Virus genome (UHGV): UHGV-1780201
Length of the DNA: 10,979 nucleotides
Strand: one strand, 5' to 3'
Source: a virus
The notes under the pieces were generated by a model. It had not been told where the DNA came from, searched no databases, and saw only the letters and a list, made by a program, of their open reading frames with translations. Made by a program: the position numbers and the translations under genes. The number at the start of each line of letters is the position of its first letter. The stretch's first letter is position 1. Below are positions 1 through 10,979 of the stretch, in pieces.

Positions 1-828
1 CACGCCTGTAATCTCATTCAGGTACTGACATTTCATATATAAATCAGATGACTTTTGTGCATCAGTCTGTGATAATCCCGCAACATTACGCATCTTTGTA
101 TAGAGAAACAGATTTTTAAAGTTGTTGCGGCCTTTCGACTTGACCATGTTTTCGCGAAGCATTTCGATATCGTTGCGATCCTGCACGGCATCGGTGACGT
201 ACATGATGTATCCGGCATGCGCGCCGTTTTCGTAATACTTGCGGCGGAACAGCGTGGCCGACTCATTCAGCCAGGCAGAGTTAAGGGCGCTGAGATATTC
301 CGGCAGGCCGTACAGCTCCTGATTAATATCCGGCTCCAGCAGGTGAAACACGGAACCGTGCGTGAAGTCTGTCTGTTCGTTGAAGGACGGCACCCCTCAG
401 TAAACATCCTCCTCCACGCCACGGCGGGTATATTTTGCCGGTGAGGTTTCCAGTCTGATGACCTTACCGGTGGTGCTGTAACGCTTTTCCAGAAACGCAT
501 TACCGAACACCAGAAAATCCAGCACAAAGCGGCTGAAATCCTGTTGCGAAAGCCACGGGTGCGGAATAAACGTTGAAGCCAGAATATTACGTTTGACGTA
601 AATCGGTGAGCTGTGATGTACGGCAGCACGCAGGCTTTTTGCCAGACCGGTAAAGCTGACCGGTGGCTCATACCATCTGCCGTTACTGATGCACTCGACG
701 TAATCCAGAATGTCACGGCGGTCGAGTACCGGCACCGGTTCACCAAAGGTGAATGCTTCCATTTTCGGGGCGCTGGCGGTGATTGTTTTTGCCGCAGGTT
801 GCGGTGTTTTCCCTTTTTTCTTGCTCAT
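1..828 (-). pseudogene. Q: Portal protein gpQ (P2-like), 3' end beyond window; interrupted by an in-frame TGA at 397-399
   Basis: ATG at 826-828 (minus) opens a 143-codon ORF (MSKKKGKTPQPAAK...RRGVEEDVY) ending at TGA 397-399. The same frame continues with no further stop for 132 codons to position 1 (GVPSFNEQTDFTHGSVFHLLEPDINQELYGLPEYLSALNSAWLNESATLFRRKYYENGAHAGYIMYVTD...). Position immediately downstream of P and the overlapping ATGA junction with the P stop match the P2 P-Q arrangement. Identity is from recollection of P2 gpQ, not a search. Confidence 0.75.
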
Positions 829-2600
829 CAGTAAAACTCCAGAATGGTGGATGTCAGCGGGGTGCTGATACCGGCGGTGAGTGGCTCATTTAACAGGGCG
901 TGCATGGTTGCCCAGGCGAGGTCGGCGTGGCTGGCTTCCTCGCTGCGGCTGGCCTCATAGGTGGCGCTGCGTCCGCTGCTGGTCATGGTCTTGCGGATAG
1001 CCATAAACGAGCTGGTGATGTCGGTGGCGCTGACGTCATATTCCAGACAGCCACGGCGGATAACGTCTTTTGCCTTGAGCACCATTGCGGTTTTCATTTC
1101 CGGCGTGTAGCGGATATCGCGCGCGGCGGGATAGAACGAGCGCACGAGCTGGAACACGCCGACACCGAGGCCGGTGGCATCAATACCGATGTATTCGACG
1201 TTGTATTTTTCGGTGAGTTTGCGGATGGATTCCGCCTGAGTGGCAAAGTCCATGCCTTTCCACTGGTGACGCTCAAGTATTCTGAATTTGCCACCGGCCA
1301 CCACCGGCGGTGCCAGCACCACGCATCCGGCGCTGTCGCCACGGTGTGACGGGTCGTAACCAATCCATACCGGGCGGGAGCCGAACGGATTCGCGGCAAA
1401 CGGCGCATAGTCTTCCCATTCTTCCAGCGTGTCGACCATGCAGCGTTGCAGCTCCTCGAACGGGAACACCGACGCCTTGTCGTCAACAAATTCACACATG
1501 AACAGGTTTTTAAAATCGTCGGCGCTGTTTTCACGTTTGAGCTGCTCAATGTCGAACAGCGTGCAGCCGCCTTTCAGCGCGTCCTCAATGGTGACAATCT
1601 GCCGCCACTGGCCGTCCGCACAGAGAAGACCTCCGGCAAGGGCGTTATGACTGACGTCGATTTCCACGCGTTCGGCGGCGCTGGCGCGCCCCCGGTTGAA
1701 CAGTTCACCCGACCAGAACGGGTAGGCGTCGTGCGCCAGCGTGGACGGGGTGGAGAAATAGGTCGAGCGCAGGTGACTCTGTGAGGCCATACCTGATGCC
1801 ACCTTACGCAGTACCTGAAAATTCGGGATCCAGAAAATCTCGTCGACGTACAGGTCACCGTTATGGCTCTGTGCGGTGTTGGAGTTGGTGCCGAGAAAAA
1901 TCAGTTTTGCGCCATTATTGCCCAGGACGATCGGGTCACCGGACAGGTCAACGTCAACCAGCCGGGCAAAGGCGATGATGTATTCGCGGAACACATACGC
2001 CTGCGTTTTACTGGCCGACAGAAAAATCTGGTTATGGCCGGTTTTCAGGGCGCGCAGCAGCGCCTCGCGGGAAAAATAAAACGTCGCGCCAATCTGGCGG
2101 GATTTCAGGATATCGCGGATGCGGTGCTCAAGCCCGGCGCGATACCAGTGCAACTGATAGTCGAAAGACTGCTCAAAGAAAATCTGCTCCAGCTTTTCGA
2201 TGGCCTCGTCACTGAAAAAATTCTTTTTCGGTTTGCGCCGCCCGCCTTTGTTGCGGTTAGCGACGTTCGGATTAAGGTCTGCCTCGTTGCCGGTCTGACT
2301 GTAACGGTTTACCCGTGCCAGTCGTTCAATCTGGCGTCCCAGCAGGTCAATTTCCTTGAAGTCACCACCGGTTTTCTGCGGTTTGATGATGAGCTGGGTC
2401 AGTCGCGCTTCCAGACTCATTTCGACACGGCTGATGGGGGCAACGCTGTCCCAGCCGTCGCGCTGTTTCCAGCTCTGCACCGTCGGGCGTTTCATCTGCA
2501 ACATGGCGGCAATCTGCGGCACGGAAAACCCCTGCCAGTACAGCAGCGCCGCCTGACGACGCGGGTCGTGTCAAAGAGTGGTGTCTGTGGTGATGGTCAT
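828..2600 (-). CDS. P: Terminase large (ATPase) subunit gpP (P2-like); native ATG at 2598-2600 is followed by an in-frame TGA at codon 10 (2571-2573), then an intact 564-codon ORF (828-2522)
   Basis: The 564-aa ORF 828-2522 (minus) matches my recollection of P2 gpP. Extending the frame upstream gives MTITTDTTL*HDPRRQAALLYWQGFSV, with the ATG at 2598-2600 preceded by a GAGG Shine-Dalgarno (+ strand CCTC at 2606-2609). 26 + 564 = 590 codons, the length I recall for P2 gpP. May be functionally a pseudogene unless internal initiation or readthrough occurs. Confidence 0.8.
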
Positions 2601-2773
2601 GAATACCTCGCCGTGATGAATACACGGCAAGGCTACTGAGTCGCGCCCCGCGATTCGCTAAGGTGCTGTTGTGTCAGTGATAAGCCATCCGGGACTGATG
2701 GCGGAGGATGCGTATCGTCGGGAAACTGATGCCGACATGTGACTCCTCTAATCACTATTCAGGACTCCTGACA
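2601..2773. promoter_or_regulatory. Divergent late promoter region (P_P leftward, P_O rightward), presumed Ogr-activated
   Basis: 173-bp non-coding gap between divergently transcribed P and O. In P2 this interval holds the two divergent Ogr-dependent late promoters (established knowledge). I could not find a clean TGT-N12-ACA element, so exact promoter positions are not assigned. Confidence 0.4.
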
Positions 2774-3628
2774 ATGGCAAAAAAAGTCTCAAAATTCTTT
2801 CGTATCGGCGTTGAGGGTGACACCTGTGACGGACGTGTCATCAGTGCGCAGGATATTCAGGAAATGGCCGAAACCTTTGACCCGCGAGTCTATGGTTGCC
2901 GCATTAACCTGGAACATCTGCGCGGCATCCTGCCTGACGGTATTTTTAACAGTTATGGCGATGTGGCCGAACTGAAGGCCGAAAAGATTGACGATGATTC
3001 GGCGCTGAAAGGCAAATGGGCGCTGTTTGCGAAAATCACCCCAACCGATGACCTTATCGCGATGAACAAGGCCGCGCAGAAGGTCTATACCTCAATGGAA
3101 ATTCAGCCGAACTTTGCCAATACCGGCAAATGTTATCTGGTGGGTCTGGCCGTCACCGATGACCCGGCAAGCCTCGGCACGGAATACCTGGAATTCTGCC
3201 GCACGGCAAAACACAACCCCCTGAACCGCTTCAAATTAAGCCCTGAAAACCTGATTTCAGTGGCAACGCCCGTTGAGCTGGAATTTGAAGACCTGCCTGA
3301 AACCGTGTTCACCGCCCTGACCGAAAAGGTGAAATCCATTTTTGGCCGTAAACAGGCCAGCGATGACGCCCGTCTGAATGACGTGCATGAAGCGGTGACC
3401 GCTGTTGCTGAACATGTGCAGGAAAAACTGAGCGCCACTGAGCAGCGCATCGCAGAAATGGAAACCGCCTTTTCCGCACTTAAGCAGGATATGACTGACA
3501 GGGCGGATGAAACCAGCCAGGCATTCACCCGCCTGAAAAACAGTCTCGACCACACCGAAAGTCTGACCCAGCAGCGCCGCAGCAAGGCCACCGGCGGTGG
3601 CGGTGACGCCCTGATGACGAACTGCTGA
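2774..3628 (+). CDS. O: Capsid scaffolding protein gpO
   Basis: 284-aa ORF starting MAKKVSKFFRIGVEGDTCDG, with AGGA Shine-Dalgarno 9 nt upstream (2761-2764). The ORF-track start at 2708 is rejected as an upstream extension. Length and sequence match recollection of P2 gpO; first gene of the rightward operon. Confidence 0.9.
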   Translation: MAKKVSKFFRIGVEGDTCDGRVISAQDIQEMAETFDPRVYGCRINLEHLRGILPDGIFNSYGDVAELKAEKIDDDSALKGKWALFAKITPTDDLIAMNKAAQKVYTSMEIQPNFANTGKCYLVGLAVTDDPASLGTEYLEFCRTAKHNPLNRFKLSPENLISVATPVELEFEDLPETVFTALTEKVKSIFGRKQASDDARLNDVHEAVTAVAEHVQEKLSATEQRIAEMETAFSALKQDMTDRADETSQAFTRLKNSLDHTESLTQQRRSKATGGGGDALMTNC

Positions 3629-3686
3629 CCGGCGTCAGTCAGTCCGGGAAAACCTTCACGATTAACCCTTAATTTCAGGAAAAACT

Positions 3687-4760
3687 ATGCGCCAGGAAAC
3701 CCGCTTTAAATTTAATGCCTACCTGTCCCGTGTTGCCGAACTGAACGGCATCGACGCCGGTGATGTGTCGAAAAAATTCACCGTTGAACCGTCGGTCACC
3801 CAGACCCTGATGAACACCATGCAGGAGTCCTCTGACTTTCTGACCCGCATCAACATTGTGCCGGTCAGCGAAATGAAAGGGGAAAAAATTGGTATCGGTG
3901 TCACCGGCTCCATCGCCAGCACCACCGACACCGCCGGTGGCACCGAGCGTCAGCCGAAGGACTTCTCGAAGCTGGCGTCTAACAAGTACGAATGCGACCA
4001 GATTAACTTCGATTTTTATATCCGCTACAAAACGCTGGACCTGTGGGCGCGTTATCAGGATTTCCAGCTCCGTGTCCGTAACGCCATTATCAAACGCCAG
4101 TCCCTTGATTTCATCATGGCCGGTTTTAACGGCGTGAGGCGTGCCGAAACCTCTGACCGCAGCAGCAATCCGATGCTGCAGGATGTGGCGGTCGGCTGGC
4201 TGCAGAAATACCGCAATGAAGCCCCGGCGCGCGTGATGAGCAAGGTCACTGACGAGGAAGGTCACACCACCTCTGAGGTCATCCGCGTGGGTAAGGGCGG
4301 TGATTATGCCAGCCTTGATGCACTGGTGATGGATGCGACCAACAACCTGATTGAGCCGTGGTATCAGGAAGACCCTGACCTTGTGGTGATTGTGGGGCGT
4401 CAGTTACTGGCGGACAAGTATTTCCCCATCGTTAACAAGGAGCAGGACAACAGCGAAATGCTGGCCGCTGACGTCATCATCAGCCAGAAACGCATCGGTA
4501 ACCTGCCGGCGGTACGCGTCCCGTACTTCCCGGCGGATGCGATGCTCATCACGAAGCTGGAAAACCTGTCCATCTACTACATGGATGACAGCCATCGCCG
4601 CGTGATTGTGGAAAACCCGAAACTCGACCGCGTGGAGAACTACGAGTCAATGAACATTGATTACGTAGTGGAAGACTACGCCGCCGGTTGTCTGGTGGAA
4701 AAAATTAAGGTCGGTGATTTCTCCACACTGGCTAAAGCGACCGCAGAGCCGGGAGCGTAA
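3687..4760 (+). CDS. N: Major capsid protein gpN
   Basis: 357-aa ORF (MRQETRFKFNAYLSRVAELNGID...), AGGA Shine-Dalgarno upstream. Length and position after O match P2 gpN. Confidence 0.9.
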   Translation: MRQETRFKFNAYLSRVAELNGIDAGDVSKKFTVEPSVTQTLMNTMQESSDFLTRINIVPVSEMKGEKIGIGVTGSIASTTDTAGGTERQPKDFSKLASNKYECDQINFDFYIRYKTLDLWARYQDFQLRVRNAIIKRQSLDFIMAGFNGVRRAETSDRSSNPMLQDVAVGWLQKYRNEAPARVMSKVTDEEGHTTSEVIRVGKGGDYASLDALVMDATNNLIEPWYQEDPDLVVIVGRQLLADKYFPIVNKEQDNSEMLAADVIISQKRIGNLPAVRVPYFPADAMLITKLENLSIYYMDDSHRRVIVENPKLDRVENYESMNIDYVVEDYAAGCLVEKIKVGDFSTLAKATAEPGA

Positions 4761-4763
4761 CCG

Positions 4764-5507
4764 ATGACGAGTCCCGCACAGCGCCACATGATGCGGGTCT
4801 CGGCAGCGATGACCGCGCAGCGGGAAGCCGCCCCGCTGCGACATGCAACTGTCTATGAGCAGATGCTGGTTAAGCTCGCCGCAGACCAGCGCACACTGAA
4901 AGCGATTTATTCAAAAGAGCTGAAGGCCGCGAAAAAGCGCGAACTGCTGCCGTTCTGGTTGCCGTGGGTGAACGGCGTGCTGGAGCAGGGCAAAGGTGCA
5001 CAGGATGACATTCTGATGACGGTCATGCTGTGGCGTCTGGATACCGGCGATATTGCCGGTGCGCTGGAGATTGCCCGTTATGCCCTGAAGTACGGTCTGA
5101 CCATGCCGGGAAAACACCGCCGCACCCCGCCGTACATGTTCACCGAGGAGGTCGCGCTTGCGGCCATGCGTGCCCACGCTGCCGGTGAGTCTGTGGATAC
5201 CCGCCTGCTGACGGACACCCTTGAACTGACCGCCACGGCTGACATGCCTGATGAAGTGCGCGCAAAGCTGCACAAAATCACCGGTCTGTTTCTGCGTGAC
5301 GCTGGTGATGCCGCCGGTGCGCTGGCTCACCTGCAACGTGCGACACAGCTCGACTGTCAGGCAGGCGTCAAAAAAGAGATTGAACGACTGGAGCGGGAGC
5401 TGAAACCGAAGCCGGAGCCGCAGCCAAAAGCGGCCACCCGTACCCCGCGTAAGACCCGGAGCGTGACACCGGCAAAACGTGGACGCCCGAAAAAGAAAGC
5501 CAGTTAA
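4764..5507 (+). CDS. M: Terminase small (endonuclease) subunit gpM
   Basis: 247-aa ORF directly after N with a basic Lys/Arg/Pro-rich C-terminus (KPKPEPQPKAATRTPRKTRSVTPAKRGRPKKKAS). Length and synteny match P2 gpM. Confidence 0.85.
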   Translation: MTSPAQRHMMRVSAAMTAQREAAPLRHATVYEQMLVKLAADQRTLKAIYSKELKAAKKRELLPFWLPWVNGVLEQGKGAQDDILMTVMLWRLDTGDIAGALEIARYALKYGLTMPGKHRRTPPYMFTEEVALAAMRAHAAGESVDTRLLTDTLELTATADMPDEVRAKLHKITGLFLRDAGDAAGALAHLQRATQLDCQAGVKKEIERLERELKPKPEPQPKAATRTPRKTRSVTPAKRGRPKKKAS

Positions 5508-5606
5508 CAACCGAATGCGCCCCGCGCCAGGGCGGCACGCCGGTCAGTGAGGGTGAATCACCTGACACTGCACCGGCGTCCACCGCCCGACTTTTCAGAG
5601 GTAGTC

Positions 5607-6116
5607 ATGATGACGCTGATTATTCCGCGAAAGGAGGCTCCCGTGTCCGGTGAGGGTACGGTGGTCATCCCGCAACCGGCAGGCGACGAGCCGGTGATTA
5701 AAAATACGTTCTTTTTTCCCGATATCGACCCGAAGCGCGTCCGGGAACGTATGCGCCTTGAGCAGACTGTCGCCCCCGCCCGTCTGCGTGAGGCCATCAA
5801 GTCAGGCATGGCGGAGACGAATGCGGAGCTGTACGAGTACCGCGAACAGAAAATTGCCGCCGGTTTTACGCGTCTGGCGGACGTTCCGGCGGACGACATC
5901 GACGGTGAAAGCATCAAAGTTTTTTACTACGAGCGCGCCGTGTGTGCGATGGCGACCGCGTCGCTTTATGAGCGTTATCGCGGCGTGGATGCCAGTGCGA
6001 AAGGCGACAAGAAGGCCGACAGCATTGACAGCACCATTGATGAGCTGTGGCGGGATATGCGCTGGGCGGTGGCGCGCATCCAGGACAAGCCGCGCTGCAT
6101 CGTGAGTCAAATCTGA
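5607..6116 (+). CDS. L: Head completion/stabilization protein gpL
   Basis: 169-aa ORF from ATG 5607 (MMTLIIPRKEAPVSGEG...), GAGG Shine-Dalgarno at 5597-5600. The upstream in-frame ATG at 5547 in the ORF track is rejected because it lacks an RBS and exceeds the P2 gpL length. Confidence 0.85.
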   Translation: MMTLIIPRKEAPVSGEGTVVIPQPAGDEPVIKNTFFFPDIDPKRVRERMRLEQTVAPARLREAIKSGMAETNAELYEYREQKIAAGFTRLADVPADDIDGESIKVFYYERAVCAMATASLYERYRGVDASAKGDKKADSIDSTIDELWRDMRWAVARIQDKPRCIVSQI

Positions 6117-6319
6117 TGAAGACCTTTGCGCTACAGGGCGACACGCTCGACGCCATTTGTGTCCGGTATTACGGGCGCACTGAGGGCGTGGTTGAGACCG
6201 TGCTCGCCGCAAATCCGGGACTGGCTGAACTGGGTGCGGTGCTGCCACACGGCACCGCCGTCGAACTGCCCGACGTTCAGACCGCGCCCGTGGCTGAAAC
6301 TGTCAATCTGTGGGAGTAA
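6116..6319 (+). CDS. X: Tail protein gpX
   Basis: 67-aa ORF (MKTFALQGDTLDAICVRYYGRTEGVVETVLAANPGLAELG...). Its ATG overlaps the L stop (TGATG at 6114-6118). Size and position match P2 gpX. Confidence 0.8.
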   Translation: MKTFALQGDTLDAICVRYYGRTEGVVETVLAANPGLAELGAVLPHGTAVELPDVQTAPVAETVNLWE

Positions 6320-6322
6320 CGC

Positions 6323-6604
6323 ATGACAGCAGAAGAAAAAAGCGTCCTGTCGCTTTTCATGATTGGGGTGCTGATTGTTGTCGGCAAGGTGCTTGCCGGT
6401 GGTGAACCCATCACCGCGGGTCTGTTTATCGGGCGGATGTTGGTCGGTGGTTTTGTCTGGATGGTTGCCGGTGTTGTTCTGGTGCAGTTTCCTGACCTGT
6501 CACTGCCTGCGGTGTGCGGCATCGGCTCCATGCTGGGTATCGCCGGTTATCAGGTGATTGAGATTGCCATTCAGCGCCGCTTTAAGGGCAGGGGGAAACC
6601 GTAA
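6323..6604 (+). CDS. Y: Holin gpY
   Basis: 93-aa ORF with hydrophobic segments (LSLFMIGVLIVVGKVLAGG, GGFVWMVAGVVLVQF, CGIGSMLGIAGYQVI) and a charged C-terminus (RRFKGRGKP), typical of a holin. Lies immediately upstream of the endolysin, as in P2. Confidence 0.8.
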   Translation: MTAEEKSVLSLFMIGVLIVVGKVLAGGEPITAGLFIGRMLVGGFVWMVAGVVLVQFPDLSLPAVCGIGSMLGIAGYQVIEIAIQRRFKGRGKP

Positions 6605-7101
6605 TGCCGGTAATTAACACACATCAGAATATCGCCGCCTTTCTCGACATGCTGGCCGTGTCCGAAGGGACGGCGAATCATCCGCTGACGAAAAACCGGG
6701 GCTATGACGTGATAGTCACCGGACTGGACGGGAAGCCGGAAATTTTCACCGACTACAGTGACCACCCGTTCGCGCATGGCCGACCGGCGAAGGTGTTTAA
6801 CCGTCGCGGTGAAAAGTCCACGGCATCCGGTCGCTATCAGCAGCTTTACCTGTTCTGGCCGCACTACCGCAAACAGCTTGCCCTGCCGGATTTCAGTCCG
6901 TTGTCACAGGACAGACTCGCCATTCAGTTGATCCGCGAACGCGGAGCACTGGATGACATCCGGGCGGGACGCATTGAGCGCGCCATTTCACGCTGTCGCA
7001 ATATCTGGGCGTCCCTGCCGGGTGCCGGTTACGGTCAGCGTGAGCATTCACTGGAAAAACTGGTCACCGTCTGGCGTACCGCTGGCGGCGTACCGGCTTA
7101 A
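6604..7101 (+). CDS. K: Endolysin (lysozyme) gpK
   Basis: 165-aa ORF (MPVINTHQNIAAFLDMLAVSEGTANHPL...). Its start overlaps the Y stop (TAATG at 6602-6606). Length, sequence and position match P2 gpK. Confidence 0.85.
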   Translation: MPVINTHQNIAAFLDMLAVSEGTANHPLTKNRGYDVIVTGLDGKPEIFTDYSDHPFAHGRPAKVFNRRGEKSTASGRYQQLYLFWPHYRKQLALPDFSPLSQDRLAIQLIRERGALDDIRAGRIERAISRCRNIWASLPGAGYGQREHSLEKLVTVWRTAGGVPA

Positions 7102-7115
7102 ACGGAGTAAACACC

Positions 7116-7541
7116 ATGAAGAAATTATCCCTTTCACTGATGCTGCACGTGTCGCTGGCGCTGATGCTGGCACTGTCCCTGATTTACCCGCAGAGCGTGG
7201 CCGTCAGTTTTGTCGCTGCCTGGGCGATTCTGGCGACGGTTATCTGTGTGGTTGCCGGTGGTGTCGGCGTGTATGCCACGGAGTATGTACTGGAACGCTA
7301 CGGACGGGAGCTGCCGCCGGAATCGCTGGCCGTGAAGATTGTCACGTCGCTGTTTTTACAGCCGGTGCCGTGGCGCAGGCGGGCGGCGGCTCTGGTGGTG
7401 ATGGTGGCGACGTTTATCTCGCTGGTCGCTGCCGGGTGGATTTTTACCGCGCTGATTTATCTCGTGGCATCGGTGTTCTTCCGGCTGATACGTACGGCCT
7501 GCCGTCAGCGTTTTGAGGGGCGGGAACCATGTCAAAGCTGA
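7116..7541 (+). CDS. lysA: LysA, membrane protein affecting lysis timing
   Basis: 141-aa ORF, highly hydrophobic with several predicted transmembrane segments (LSLSLMLHVSLALMLALSLIY, AAWAILATVICVVAGGVGVYA, AALVVMVATFISLVAAGWIFTALIYLVASVFF). Position after K matches P2 lysA. Confidence 0.75.
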   Translation: MKKLSLSLMLHVSLALMLALSLIYPQSVAVSFVAAWAILATVICVVAGGVGVYATEYVLERYGRELPPESLAVKIVTSLFLQPVPWRRRAAALVVMVATFISLVAAGWIFTALIYLVASVFFRLIRTACRQRFEGREPCQS

Positions 7542-7954
7542 TGATTGTGATGGTTGTGTTGTTATCGCTGGCGGTGGCGGGTCTGTTTCTGGCGAAGCAT
7601 AAAAACGCCAGCCTGCGCACCTCACTGGACAGGGCAAACAACGTAGCCAGCGAGCAGCAGGCGACCATCACCATGCTGAAAAATCAGCTTCATGTTGCGC
7701 TCACCAGGGCAGACAAAAACGAGCTGGCGCAGGTGGCACTGCGTCAGGAACTGGAGAACGCCGCGAAGCGTGAAGCACAGCGCGAGAAAACCATCACGAG
7801 GTTACTCAATGAAAACGAAGATTTTCGCCGCTGGTACGGTGCTGACCTGCCTGATGCTGTGCGCCGGTTGCACCAGCGCCCGGCCTGCGCAGACGCCAGT
7901 GATTGTCCACAACGCCTGCCCGAAAGTGAGTCTTTGCCCGATGCCGGGCAGTGA
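7529..7954 (+). CDS. lysB: LysB, Rz-like inner-membrane spanin
   Basis: 141-aa ORF with an N-terminal transmembrane anchor (LMIVMVVLLSLAVAGLFLA) followed by a charged, likely coiled-coil region. Overlaps the lysA 3' end by 13 nt. Matches P2 lysB in size and position. Confidence 0.75.
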   Translation: MSKLMIVMVVLLSLAVAGLFLAKHKNASLRTSLDRANNVASEQQATITMLKNQLHVALTRADKNELAQVALRQELENAAKREAQREKTITRLLNENEDFRRWYGADLPDAVRRLHQRPACADASDCPQRLPESESLPDAGQ

Positions 7955-8099
7955 CCCGCAGAAGAACGGCGATTTAAGTGCCGATATCCGGCAGCTTGAG
8001 AACGCGCTGGCACGCTGTGCCAGCCAGGTAAAAATGATTAAACACTGTCAGGACGAAAACGATGCTCAAACCCGACAGCCTGCGCAGGGCGCTGACTGA
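7809..8099 (+). CDS. lysC: LysC, Rz1-like outer-membrane lipoprotein spanin
   Basis: 96-aa ORF in the +1 frame relative to lysB, starting at ATG 7809 (MKTKIFAAGTVLTCLMLCAGC...). It has a lipoprotein signal peptide with lipobox L-C-A-G-C and a Pro-rich mature region. It extends past the lysB stop and overlaps the start of R. The ORF-track start at 7692 is rejected. Confidence 0.7.
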   Translation: MKTKIFAAGTVLTCLMLCAGCTSARPAQTPVIVHNACPKVSLCPMPGSDPQKNGDLSADIRQLENALARCASQVKMIKHCQDENDAQTRQPAQGAD

Positions 8100-8529
8100 T
8101 GCCGTCACGGTGCTGAAAACTAACCCCGATATGCTGCGGATATTCGTGGATAACGGGAGTATTGCCTCCACACTGGCGGCGTCGTTGTCATTCGAAAAGC
8201 GTTACACGCTCAATGTCATTGTGACCGACTTTACCGGTGATTTTGACCTGCTCATCGTGCCGGTGCTGGCGTGGCTGCGGGAAAATCAGCCCGACATCAT
8301 GACCACCGACGCAGGCCAGAAAAAGGGCTTCACGTTTTATGCAGACATCAACAATGACAGCAGCTTTGATATCAGCATCAGCCTGATGCTGACCGAGCGC
8401 ACGCTGGTCAGTGAGGTGGACGGCGCACTGCATGTGAAGAATATCCCGGAACCTCCGCCGCCGGAGCCGGTTACCCGACCGATGGAGCTGTATATCAATG
8501 GCGAACTGGTGAGCAAGTGGGATGAATGA
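8062..8529 (+). CDS. R: Tail completion protein gpR
   Basis: 155-aa ORF (MLKPDSLRRALTDAVTVLKTNPDMLRIFVDNGS...). Length and synteny match P2 gpR. Confidence 0.85.
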   Translation: MLKPDSLRRALTDAVTVLKTNPDMLRIFVDNGSIASTLAASLSFEKRYTLNVIVTDFTGDFDLLIVPVLAWLRENQPDIMTTDAGQKKGFTFYADINNDSSFDISISLMLTERTLVSEVDGALHVKNIPEPPPPEPVTRPMELYINGELVSKWDE

Positions 8530-8974
8530 GTTTAAGCGTTTTGAAGACCGGCTGACCGGACTGATTGAGTCGCTGTCACCATCAGGGCGTCGGCGACTGA
8601 GTGCCGAACTGGCGAAACGTCTGCGGCAGAGTCAGCAGCATCGTGTGATGGCACAGAAAGCCCCGGACGGCACACCCTACGCGCCACGTCAGCAGCAGAG
8701 CGCCAGAAAAAAGACCGGTCGCGTTAAGCGAAAAATGTTTGCGAAACTTATCACCAGTCGTTTTTTGCATATCCGCGCCAGCCCGGAACAGGCATCAATG
8801 GAATTTTACGGCGGAAAGTCACCGAAAATCGCCAGTGTGCATCAGTTCGGTCTGTCGGAAGAAAACCGGAAAGACGGTAAGAAAATTGATTATCCGGCGC
8901 GTCCCCTGCTCGGCTTTACCGGTGAGGATGTGCAGATGATTGAAGAGATTATTCTGGCGCACCTCGACCGTTAG
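8522..8974 (+). CDS. S: Tail completion protein gpS
   Basis: 150-aa ORF (MNEFKRFEDRLTGLIESLSPSGRRRLSAELAKRLRQ...). Overlaps the R 3' end by 8 nt. Length and synteny match P2 gpS. Confidence 0.85.
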   Translation: MNEFKRFEDRLTGLIESLSPSGRRRLSAELAKRLRQSQQHRVMAQKAPDGTPYAPRQQQSARKKTGRVKRKMFAKLITSRFLHIRASPEQASMEFYGGKSPKIASVHQFGLSEENRKDGKKIDYPARPLLGFTGEDVQMIEEIILAHLDR

Positions 8975-9040
8975 TTGTGCCATTCCCGACACCTCATCGT
9001 CACATTGCCGCCGGTATGACCCGGCGGCATCCTTCCCGTT
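8975..9040 (+). promoter_or_regulatory. S-V intergenic region, presumed site of late promoter P_V; contains a GC-rich hairpin at 9006-9029
   Basis: 66-bp gap between S and V. P2 has a late promoter upstream of V (established knowledge). A 9-bp perfect inverted repeat TGCCGCCGG / CCGGCGGCA with a 6-nt loop sits at 9006-9029. No clean promoter motif was identified. Confidence 0.3.
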
Positions 9041-9682
9041 ATGAACACTCTCGCAAATATTCAGGAACTCGCGCGCGCACTGCGCAACATGATCCGCACC
9101 GGCATTATCGTCGAAACCGACCTTAACGCCGGTCGCTGCCGTGTGCAGACCGGCGGCATGTGCACCGACTGGCTTCAGTGGCTGACCCATCGCGCCGGGC
9201 GTTCGCGCACATGGTGGGCACCTTCCGTGGGGGAACAGGTGCTGATTCTGGCCGTGGGCGGTGAACTCGACACGGCGTTCGTTCTGCCGGGGATTTATTC
9301 CGGCGATAACCCCGCGCCGTCTGCGTCGGCGGATGCCCTGCATATCCGTTTCCCTGACGGGGCGGTGATTGAATATGAACCCGAAACCAGTGCACTTACG
9401 GTAAGCGGAATTAAAACGGCCAGCGTGACGGCTTCTGATTCTGTTACTGCCACGGTGCCGGTGGTCACGGTGAAAGCATCAACCCGCGTCACCCTGGACA
9501 CACCGGAAGTGGTCTGCACTAACAAGCTGACTACCGGCACGCTGGAAGTGCAGAAGGGCGGGAAGATGCACGGCAACATCGAGCATACCGACGGGAAATT
9601 CACGTCTAACGGCGTTCAGGTGGATGACCACGGTCACGGTGGTGTTAAGTCAGGAGACAACTGGACACAGGGGACAAAATGA
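9041..9682 (+). CDS. V: Baseplate central spike protein gpV
   Basis: 213-aa ORF (MNTLANIQELARALRNMIRTGIIVETDLNAGRCRVQTGG...) with a C-terminal His-Gly cluster (DDHGHGGVKSGD), consistent with the metal-binding spike apex described for P2 gpV-type spikes. Synteny matches P2. Confidence 0.85.
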   Translation: MNTLANIQELARALRNMIRTGIIVETDLNAGRCRVQTGGMCTDWLQWLTHRAGRSRTWWAPSVGEQVLILAVGGELDTAFVLPGIYSGDNPAPSASADALHIRFPDGAVIEYEPETSALTVSGIKTASVTASDSVTATVPVVTVKASTRVTLDTPEVVCTNKLTTGTLEVQKGGKMHGNIEHTDGKFTSNGVQVDDHGHGGVKSGDNWTQGTK

Positions 9683-10026
9683 CAGCACGTTATCTCGGAA
9701 TGAATCGCAGTGATGGCCAGACTGTCACTGACCTTGAGCATATCAGCCAGAGTATCGGCGATATCCTGCGCACGCCGGTCGGCTCACGGGTGATGCGTCG
9801 TGATTACGGCTCGTTGCTGGCGTCAATGATTGACCAGCCGCAGACCCCGGCGCTTGAGTTGCAGATTAAGGTCGCCTGTTACATGGCGGTGCTGAAATGG
9901 GAACCCCGCGTCACCCTGGCATCCGTCACCACGGCGCGCAGCTTTGACGGGCGAATGACGGTCACGTTAACCGGCCAGCATAACGACACCGGCCAGCCAC
10001 TTTCGTTAACCATCCCTGTGAGTTGA
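9679..10026 (+). CDS. W: Baseplate wedge protein gpW (gp25-like)
   Basis: 115-aa ORF (MTARYLGMNRSDGQTVTDLEHISQSIGDILRTPVGSRVMRRDYGS...). Its start overlaps the V stop (ATGA). Length and synteny match P2 gpW. Confidence 0.85.
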   Translation: MTARYLGMNRSDGQTVTDLEHISQSIGDILRTPVGSRVMRRDYGSLLASMIDQPQTPALELQIKVACYMAVLKWEPRVTLASVTTARSFDGRMTVTLTGQHNDTGQPLSLTIPVS

Positions 10027-10030
10027 AACC

Positions 10031-10939
10031 ATGCCGATTATCGACCTGAACCAGCTACCCGCACCGGATGTGGTTGAGGAGCTGGACTTTGAAACCATTC
10101 TTGCCGAACGCAAGGCGACACTGATTTCCCTTTACCCGGAAGACCAGCAGGAGGCGGTCGCCCGTACCCTGACGCTGGAATCCGAGCCTCTCGTCAAACT
10201 GCTGGAGGAAAATGCTTATCGCGAGCTTATCTGGCGTCAGCGTGTGAATGAGGCCGCACGGGCGGTGATGCTGGCCTGTGCCGCCGGTAATGACCTTGAT
10301 GTGATTGGTGCCAATTACAACACCACGCGCCTGATTATCACCCCGGCAGATGATTCGACTATCCCGCCGACACCGGCAGTGATGGAGTCTGACACCGATT
10401 ATCGTCTGCGTATTCAGCAGGCGTTTGAGCGCTTAAGCGTCGCCGGGTCGGTGGGTGCCTATCAGTATCATGGCCGCAGTGCCGACGGGCGTGTCGCGGA
10501 TATCTCTGTCACCAGTCCGTCTCCGGCCTGCGTCACCATCTCTGTGCTGTCACGTGAAAATAACGGTGTCGCATCCGAAGACCTGCTGGCGGTGGTGCGT
10601 AACGCTCTTAATGGCGAGGACGTCAGGCCGGTGGCCGACCGCGTGACCGTGCAGTCTGCCGCCATCGTTGAATACCAGATAAACGCCACGCTTTACCTTT
10701 ACCCTGGTCCCGAAAGCGAACCCATTCGCGCTGCTGCTGTGAAAAAACTGGAAGCGTATATCACGGCACAGCACCGGCTGGGGCGTGACATCCGTCTGTC
10801 TGCCATTTATGCCGCTTTGCATGTGGAAGGCGTGCAGCGTGTCGAACTGACTGCTCCGCTGGCCGACATCGTGCTCAACAGTACGCAGGCGTCTTTCTGT
10901 ACCGAATACAACGTCGTGACCGGAGGCTCGGATGAGTGA
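10031..10939 (+). CDS. J: Baseplate assembly protein gpJ
   Basis: 302-aa ORF (MPIIDLNQLPAPDVVEELDFETILAERKATLISLYPEDQQ...). Length and synteny match P2 gpJ. Confidence 0.85.
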   Translation: MPIIDLNQLPAPDVVEELDFETILAERKATLISLYPEDQQEAVARTLTLESEPLVKLLEENAYRELIWRQRVNEAARAVMLACAAGNDLDVIGANYNTTRLIITPADDSTIPPTPAVMESDTDYRLRIQQAFERLSVAGSVGAYQYHGRSADGRVADISVTSPSPACVTISVLSRENNGVASEDLLAVVRNALNGEDVRPVADRVTVQSAAIVEYQINATLYLYPGPESEPIRAAAVKKLEAYITAQHRLGRDIRLSAIYAALHVEGVQRVELTAPLADIVLNSTQASFCTEYNVVTGGSDE

Positions 10940-10979
10940 TTCGCGACTGCTGCCGACCGGCTCATCACCGCTTGAGGTC
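10932..10979 (+). CDS. I: Baseplate protein gpI, 5' fragment (continues beyond window)
   Basis: ATG at 10932 overlapping the J stop; the first 16 codons (MSDSRLLPTGSSPLEV) are in the window. Position matches P2 gene I. Confidence 0.6.
   Translation, partial: MSDSRLLPTGSSPLEV

Follow-up and report, generated by a model that had tools for sequence, protein, structure and literature searches.

An in-frame TGA in the portal gene of a P2-like phage contig, very probably an artefact of sequencing or assembly

When a stop codon interrupts an essential gene on a metagenomic phage contig, has the phage lost the gene, does it decode the stop, or is the contig wrong? The window (the whole stretch of DNA that was analysed, 10,979 nucleotides, UHGV virus genome UHGV-1780201) raises this question at its left end. 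On the minus strand, a frame running from 828 to 1 opens with MSKKKGKTPQ..., continues to a stretch ending in RRGVEEDVY, meets a TGA at 399..397, which is codon 144 of the portal gene, and then reads GVPSFNEQTDFTHG...; 132 more codons stay open past the TGA, up to the window edge. In the list of open reading frames the portal fragment appears as 397..828(-), with 143 aa. An initial annotation had described an in-frame TGA inside a portal ORF that stays open for 132 codons beyond it, and translation bears this out. The TGA is really present in the deposited contig, and it is very probably an artefact of sequencing or assembly; the portal gene of the real phage is most likely intact.

The element and its contig

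The contig carries a P2-like (Peduovirus) phage or prophage of the ordinary kind, whose host is E. coli or a close relative. From position 100 to 10979 the window aligns colinearly with P2-like prophages, the highest identity being 98.4%, and the gene order is the late order of P2 (Q, P, then O N M L X Y K lysA lysB R S V W J). Over positions 100-900, the DNA identity to the P2-family genes for portal (gpQ) and terminase (gpP) is 96-98%, with 75 phage records among the matches, and the same region is matched in ~1600 of 5426 complete E. coli genomes. The interrupted gene belongs to the gpQ family by homology as well as by position, downstream of the terminase gene gpP and divergent from the capsid genes O-N-M-L. 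It resembles P2 gene Q (gpQ; Phage_portal PF04860) and its homologs in Peduovirus and E. coli in its DNA identity of 96-98% over 100-828, in the ATGA overlap by which Q follows P, in its divergence from the O-N-M-L-X-Y-K operon, and in a protein that matches apart from the private changes. On the other hand, it differs from P2 gene Q in having TGA at codon 144 and GGG at codon 145 (both TGG in relatives), in three further private replacements, and in being without the last 101 codons, in whose place foreign sequence is found. The non-essential P2 gene orf30, located between S and V, is absent at 8975-9040; it is also absent from the closest E. coli prophages, the intergenic gap there measures 66 bases, and its absence is ordinary variation among P2-like phages. 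The coordinates of the features discussed here are collected in the table.

By exact-product look-up, the window is 100% identical to ena:ERZ773497:NODE_3291_length_10979_cov_2.881765, which, judged by its naming, is a contig of a SPAdes-type metagenome assembly. A literature search on the accession ERZ773497 returned no matches. The k-mer coverage recorded in the contig name is low, at 2.88. A k-mer coverage below 3 corresponds to a read depth of about 4-6x for reads of 100-150 nt at k=55, and at such a depth a few percent of the positions would be covered by one read.

Table. Features of the window, with coordinates on the window and the strand where it applies
Feature	Position	Strand	Remark
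Foreign tail, fragment of a methylase/SNF2-helicase gene (TKMRNVAGLSQTDAQKSSDLYMKCQYLNEITGV), fused in frame	1..99	-	not portal
Exact 24-mer AACTTTAAAAATCTGTTTCTCTAT (gene strand), encoding NFKNLFLY	100..123		point at which the source switches
Portal gene (P2 gpQ homolog), codons 1-243 of ~344	100..828	-	start ATG overlaps the terminase stop (ATGA)
Five window-private substitutions, all non-synonymous	359..397		39 bases; probable low-quality single-read patch
Codon 145, GGG (Gly) in place of an invariant TGG (Trp)	394..396	-	adjoins the TGA
In-frame TGA, portal codon 144	397..399	-	TGG (Trp) in all relatives
Terminase large subunit gene (gpP homolog), otherwise intact	828..2600	-	Pfam and comparison with relatives
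Second private in-frame TGA, terminase large subunit (gpP) codon 10	2571..2573	-	TTA (Leu) in relatives
Five private C>G changes in 44 bases, holin gene Y	6416..6459	+	four non-synonymous

The portal stop and the substitutions around it

Codons 144-145 are TGG TGG (Trp-Trp) in 131/131 P2-like relatives, and therefore the TGA at codon 144 is not a chance end of an ORF. The alignment to homologs that had been proposed as a check, with TGG (Trp) as the guess for the sense codon, thus returned the expected codon throughout, and the initial view that the TGA is not a natural gene end is upheld by an invariant Trp codon. The window has TAC TGA GGG GTG where P2, pro483 and the closest E. coli prophage have TAC TGG TGG GTG (Tyr-Trp-Trp-Val). 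On the plus strand, position 397 is T in the window and C in the relatives (131/131), and the neighbouring position 396 is C in the window and A in the relatives (again 131/131), so that codons 144 and 145 jointly carry a dinucleotide change, GT>AG on the gene strand.

The lesion had been thought to involve a single codon, which proved to be too narrow a description: codon 145 is also altered (TGG>GGG), and three private non-synonymous transversions accompany the two changed codons, all within 39 bases. The five changes on the plus strand are 359 G>T, 368 G>T, 374 G>T, 396 A>C and 397 C>T. Read on the gene strand, they are a G>A and a T>G in codons 144 and 145 together with three C>A, and their consequences for the portal protein are W144*, W145G, P152Q, A154D and P157H. 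These differences were counted against the closest alleles of the stretch, those of E. coli WP2-W18 and Yersinia phage vB_YpM_115. In the panel of 131 relatives, which consists of annotated loci and 120 IMG/VR contigs, positions 359, 368, 374, 396 and 397 are G, G, G, A and C in 131/131, and the window is different at every one of them.

Across the panel of relatives, the E. coli genomes, the phage records, IMG/VR, the JGI metagenomes and the exact-product look-up, no independent copy of the TGA allele was found. An exact 34-mer with TGAGGG occurs 0 times in IMG/VR, and the corresponding 34-mer with TGGTGG occurs in at least 120 IMG/VR contigs; a 24-mer with TGAGGG occurs 0 times in the JGI metagenomes by exact scan. 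When the 91-base stretch was searched by BLAST in complete E. coli genomes and in phage records, none of the 1862 E. coli places and 75 phage records exceeded 94.5% identity. The exact look-up of the 143-aa truncated product returned one contig besides the window's own, the draft E. coli contig ABEBTU010000094.1 (GCA_021016015.1), which is 97.2% identical to the window overall and starts inside portal codon 144 (...TAC TG). It was rejected as independent support for the stop, since its product is cut by the contig end and not by a stop codon; its start at this very codon is probably a coincidence among many fragmented assemblies. Mutagenesis by a diversity-generating retroelement was also considered and rejected, because the changes are not adenine-specific and the window is without a reverse transcriptase.

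If the stop at codon 144 were real, it would abolish the portal, because the Phage_portal domain of Pfam spans residues 89-327 of full-length P2 gpQ (53.3 bits), with codon 144 inside the domain, and neither window portal fragment alone reaches the Phage_portal threshold. A sequence search for a solved structure of a close P2 gpQ homolog, in which residue 144 could be placed, found none. The uninterrupted portal ORF of ~344 codons is missing from the window, with a stop at codon 144 and the portal sequence over at codon 243, and this failure is attributed to artefact and not to biology.

The left end of the contig

The portal gene had been described as otherwise intact. This does not hold, since portal homology ends at window position 100 (codon 243 of 344) and SNF2-helicase sequence lies beyond. 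The real portal sequence after the stop consists of codons 145-243 only (396..100), and the last 33 open codons (99..1) belong to the helicase gene. All phage and E. coli matches end at position 100, and the GC content is 38% in the tail (1..99) against ~55% in the adjoining portal. Positions 3-123 are identical, over 121/121 bases, to three independent gut-metagenome contigs by exact scan. Around the segment, the GC content of these contigs is 36-38%, and the ORF that contains the segment is no shorter than 2178 aa and shows features of a methylase and of an SNF2/DExH helicase (...LFVDESHNFKNLFLYTKMRN...). Translated in the frame of the portal, the tail gives FLYTKMRNVAGLSQTDAQKSSDLYMKCQYLNEITGV, where its homologs have FLYTKMRNVGGIAQTEAQKSSDLFMKCRYLDEITGG and similar. 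BLAST with positions 1-105 gave matches at 70-77% identity. Some are genes labelled 'helicase-related' or 'SNF2-related' on plasmids of Firmicutes (Anaerococcus, Aerococcus, Streptococcus, Lactococcus and Monoglobus); others are unannotated 'Bacteriophage sp.' contigs from human faeces. The 99 bases of the tail have no match in the 5426 complete E. coli genomes, and two exact scans of the GTDB species genomes did not find them.

The two sources meet at the 24-mer listed in the table. It is present in 65 panel loci and is common to P2-like portal genes and to the SNF2-helicase gene of low-GC gut elements, in both of which it encodes the same eight residues. In a three-way alignment, the window is helicase-identical on one side of the 24-mer and portal on the other. 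The left end is chimeric: an exact k-mer is shared, and its flanks match different independent sources. The junction at this k-mer has the look of a mis-join in a de Bruijn graph, made through a repeat longer than the smallest k, which is 21 in SPAdes. The window resembles chimeric contigs of this origin in its exact 24-base junction, in having each side 100% or ~98% identical to unrelated sources, and in the step of GC content from 38% to ~55%; it differs from them in a join that, by chance, keeps the frame. With NFKNLFLY encoded by both genes, the fusion looked like a continuous ORF at first reading, and an ORF that is open to the contig end can conceal such a join. Two unrelated genomes were fused here through nothing more than 24 bases (8 residues) that the portal gene of a phage and an SNF2-helicase gene have in common by coincidence. 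Since the contig switches source at 100-123, it is suggested that coverage by phage reads was giving out ~250-300 bases from the TGA.

Private changes across the window and the competing explanations

The portal is not the only gene with a stop of this kind. The terminase large subunit is called as 564 aa in the window instead of the 590 aa of relatives because of the private TGA at codon 10, where position 2572 is C in the window and A in 94/94 relatives. Downstream of this codon, Pfam finds all three terminase domains, Terminase_5, Terminase_6N and Terminase_6C. The second cluster lies in the holin gene, at sites 6416, 6419, 6436, 6443 and 6459, where the relatives have C in 37-38 of 37-38 sequences; it looks like a patch of miscalls of a single type from a single read. 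Private changes are also found in the W, J and O genes, not in the head genes alone. No private indels were found across the window in comparison with the relatives, and all genes other than those of portal and terminase hold their reading frame. Two smaller groups were observed as well. At 1914-1943 in the terminase gene, three private changes fall within 30 bases, two of them synonymous transitions, and this group may be real variation. At 2950-2951 in the scaffold gene O, a private change of two adjacent bases gives K59N and R60S and looks like another miscall.

In total, 26 substitutions are private to the window. Their ratio of non-synonymous to synonymous changes is 17:9, compared with 57:126 for the shared polymorphisms (Fisher p=0.0016), and their ratio of transversions to transitions is 18:8, compared with 61:126 (Fisher p=0.00045). 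The occurrence of two clusters of 5 within 45 bases has a permutation P of 1e-5. Among the private transversions, 15/18 are non-synonymous, the proportion expected of unselected random changes, and half of the private transversions belong to the A<->C / G<->T class, which is the commonest class of Illumina miscall. The private changes are therefore clustered, rich in transversions and without sign of selection, as is typical of artefacts. Random substitutions in these genes create a stop in 3.2% of cases; at this rate, 18-26 errors give two or more stops with a probability of 0.12-0.21, so that two stops are unremarkable under an error model. Some genuine variation is likely to be mixed in: the 8 transitions among the 26 private changes, most of them synonymous, resemble genuine variation, and, because the panel of relatives thins to 16-38 sequences towards the right end of the window, some of the changes counted as private there are probably rare but real variants.

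Low coverage, clustered private substitutions, a second stop, a second cluster and a chimeric end are direct observations, from which we infer that the patches derive from single low-quality reads. At very low depth, some stretches would rest on one read, and the miscalls of a poor read, often in its tail, could escape correction and enter the consensus. One such patch of ~40 bases (359-397) would have turned TGG TGG (Trp144-Trp145) into TGA GGG and altered three nearby codons. The window shares with uncorrected errors in low-coverage short-read metagenome assemblies both the very low coverage and private substitutions that occur in clusters, are rich in transversions, often belong to one type and bear no mark of selection; each patch in the window corresponds roughly to part of a read length, and no observation in the window conflicts with this comparison. 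The initial annotation had left open a nonsense lesion and a base-call error. The latter is favoured, and the former disfavoured, by the private cluster, the low coverage and the chimeric nature of the contig. Its further statement that the element cannot make infectious particles is not an inference that can be drawn from a chimeric contig with 2.88x k-mer coverage and the same error signature in terminase and holin.

The main rival to an artefact is real pseudogenisation, in which a decaying P2-like prophage would have had its portal (W144*) and terminase (L10*) truly knocked out and would package no DNA; such an element could be a cryptic prophage, or one drifting towards a tail-only, tailocin-like state. 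This is unlikely. It would account for two stops falling in two adjacent head/packaging genes while the tail, baseplate and lysis genes are all open, and E. coli genomes do harbour defective remnants of P2-like phages, such as that of strain C with its truncated portal pseudogene. The window resembles the E. coli C remnant in that its portal gene is not fully translatable, but the defects of such prophages are deletions and truncations that recur in related strains, whereas those of the window are private point changes in a late region that is free of indels and otherwise complete. Spontaneous bacterial mutation is rich in transitions and includes indels. Five non-synonymous changes in 39 bases and five C>G in 44 bases are unlike it, and private indels are absent. 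Moreover, error-like private changes extend to the holin, W, J and O genes, the TGA allele is absent from the 131 relatives, IMG/VR and the JGI metagenomes, and the contig has 2.88x coverage with a proven chimeric end. The specific case in which both opal stops (W144* and L10*) are real, and a P2-like prophage of gut E. coli has just lost head assembly and packaging with tail, baseplate and lysis intact, is rated slightly lower still. If true, it would be an early snapshot of a phage becoming a tailocin-like or cryptic element, and readthrough of UGA by tRNA-Trp at the former Trp codon might give partial rescue.

It is very improbable that 359-397 was recombined in, or assembled from reads, from a divergent portal allele of another P2-like phage. 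The portal gene is indeed polymorphic just downstream, with NEPTAFAPG and NEPTPFAPG alleles and synonymous variants, and the draft contig ABEBTU010000094.1 breaks exactly at codon 144. However, a functional divergent allele would have no stop and mostly synonymous differences, and all five changes here are non-synonymous; the five positions are invariant in the 131 relatives, and the 91-base stretch is at most 94.5% identical to any of the 1862 E. coli places and 75 phage records. A mosaic allele is thus effectively excluded.

Decoding of the UGA, whether by near-cognate readthrough with tRNA-Trp, by an opal suppressor, as selenocysteine or under a code with TGA as Trp, has a negligible chance of being correct: the relatives' codon is TGG (Trp) and the frame is open downstream, but TGA is found at codon 144 in 0/131 relatives, it is the terminator of 9/15 complete genes of the window, whose ends agree with those of P2 (the terminase gene, whose stop overlaps the start of the portal gene, is one of them), and the second private TGA (terminase codon 10) replaces Leu, not Trp. 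UGA is a stop codon that can be misread by tRNA-Trp, and it means Trp in genetic code 4; such a code is ruled out here because TGA terminates 9/15 complete genes. A tRNA gene search of the window found none, Rfam gave no relevant match to a recoding element around the stop (200-600), and the folding energy of the 76 nt downstream of the stop is no better than that of shuffles (z = -0.51). The codon's lack of conservation and the use of TGA as an ordinary stop effectively refute recoding already.

With an artefact as the preferred reading, the biological import of the locus is small, the phage being an ordinary P2-like one. Where a metagenome contig of ~3x coverage shows an essential gene interrupted by an in-frame stop, claims of pseudogenes or recoding call for read-level support. 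Among the P2-like records, ON470611.1 (Escherichia phage vB_EcoM-473R3, a partial genome of 11 kb) has its terminase annotated as two CDSs and an extra gap before the portal, and may be another low-quality or rearranged record.
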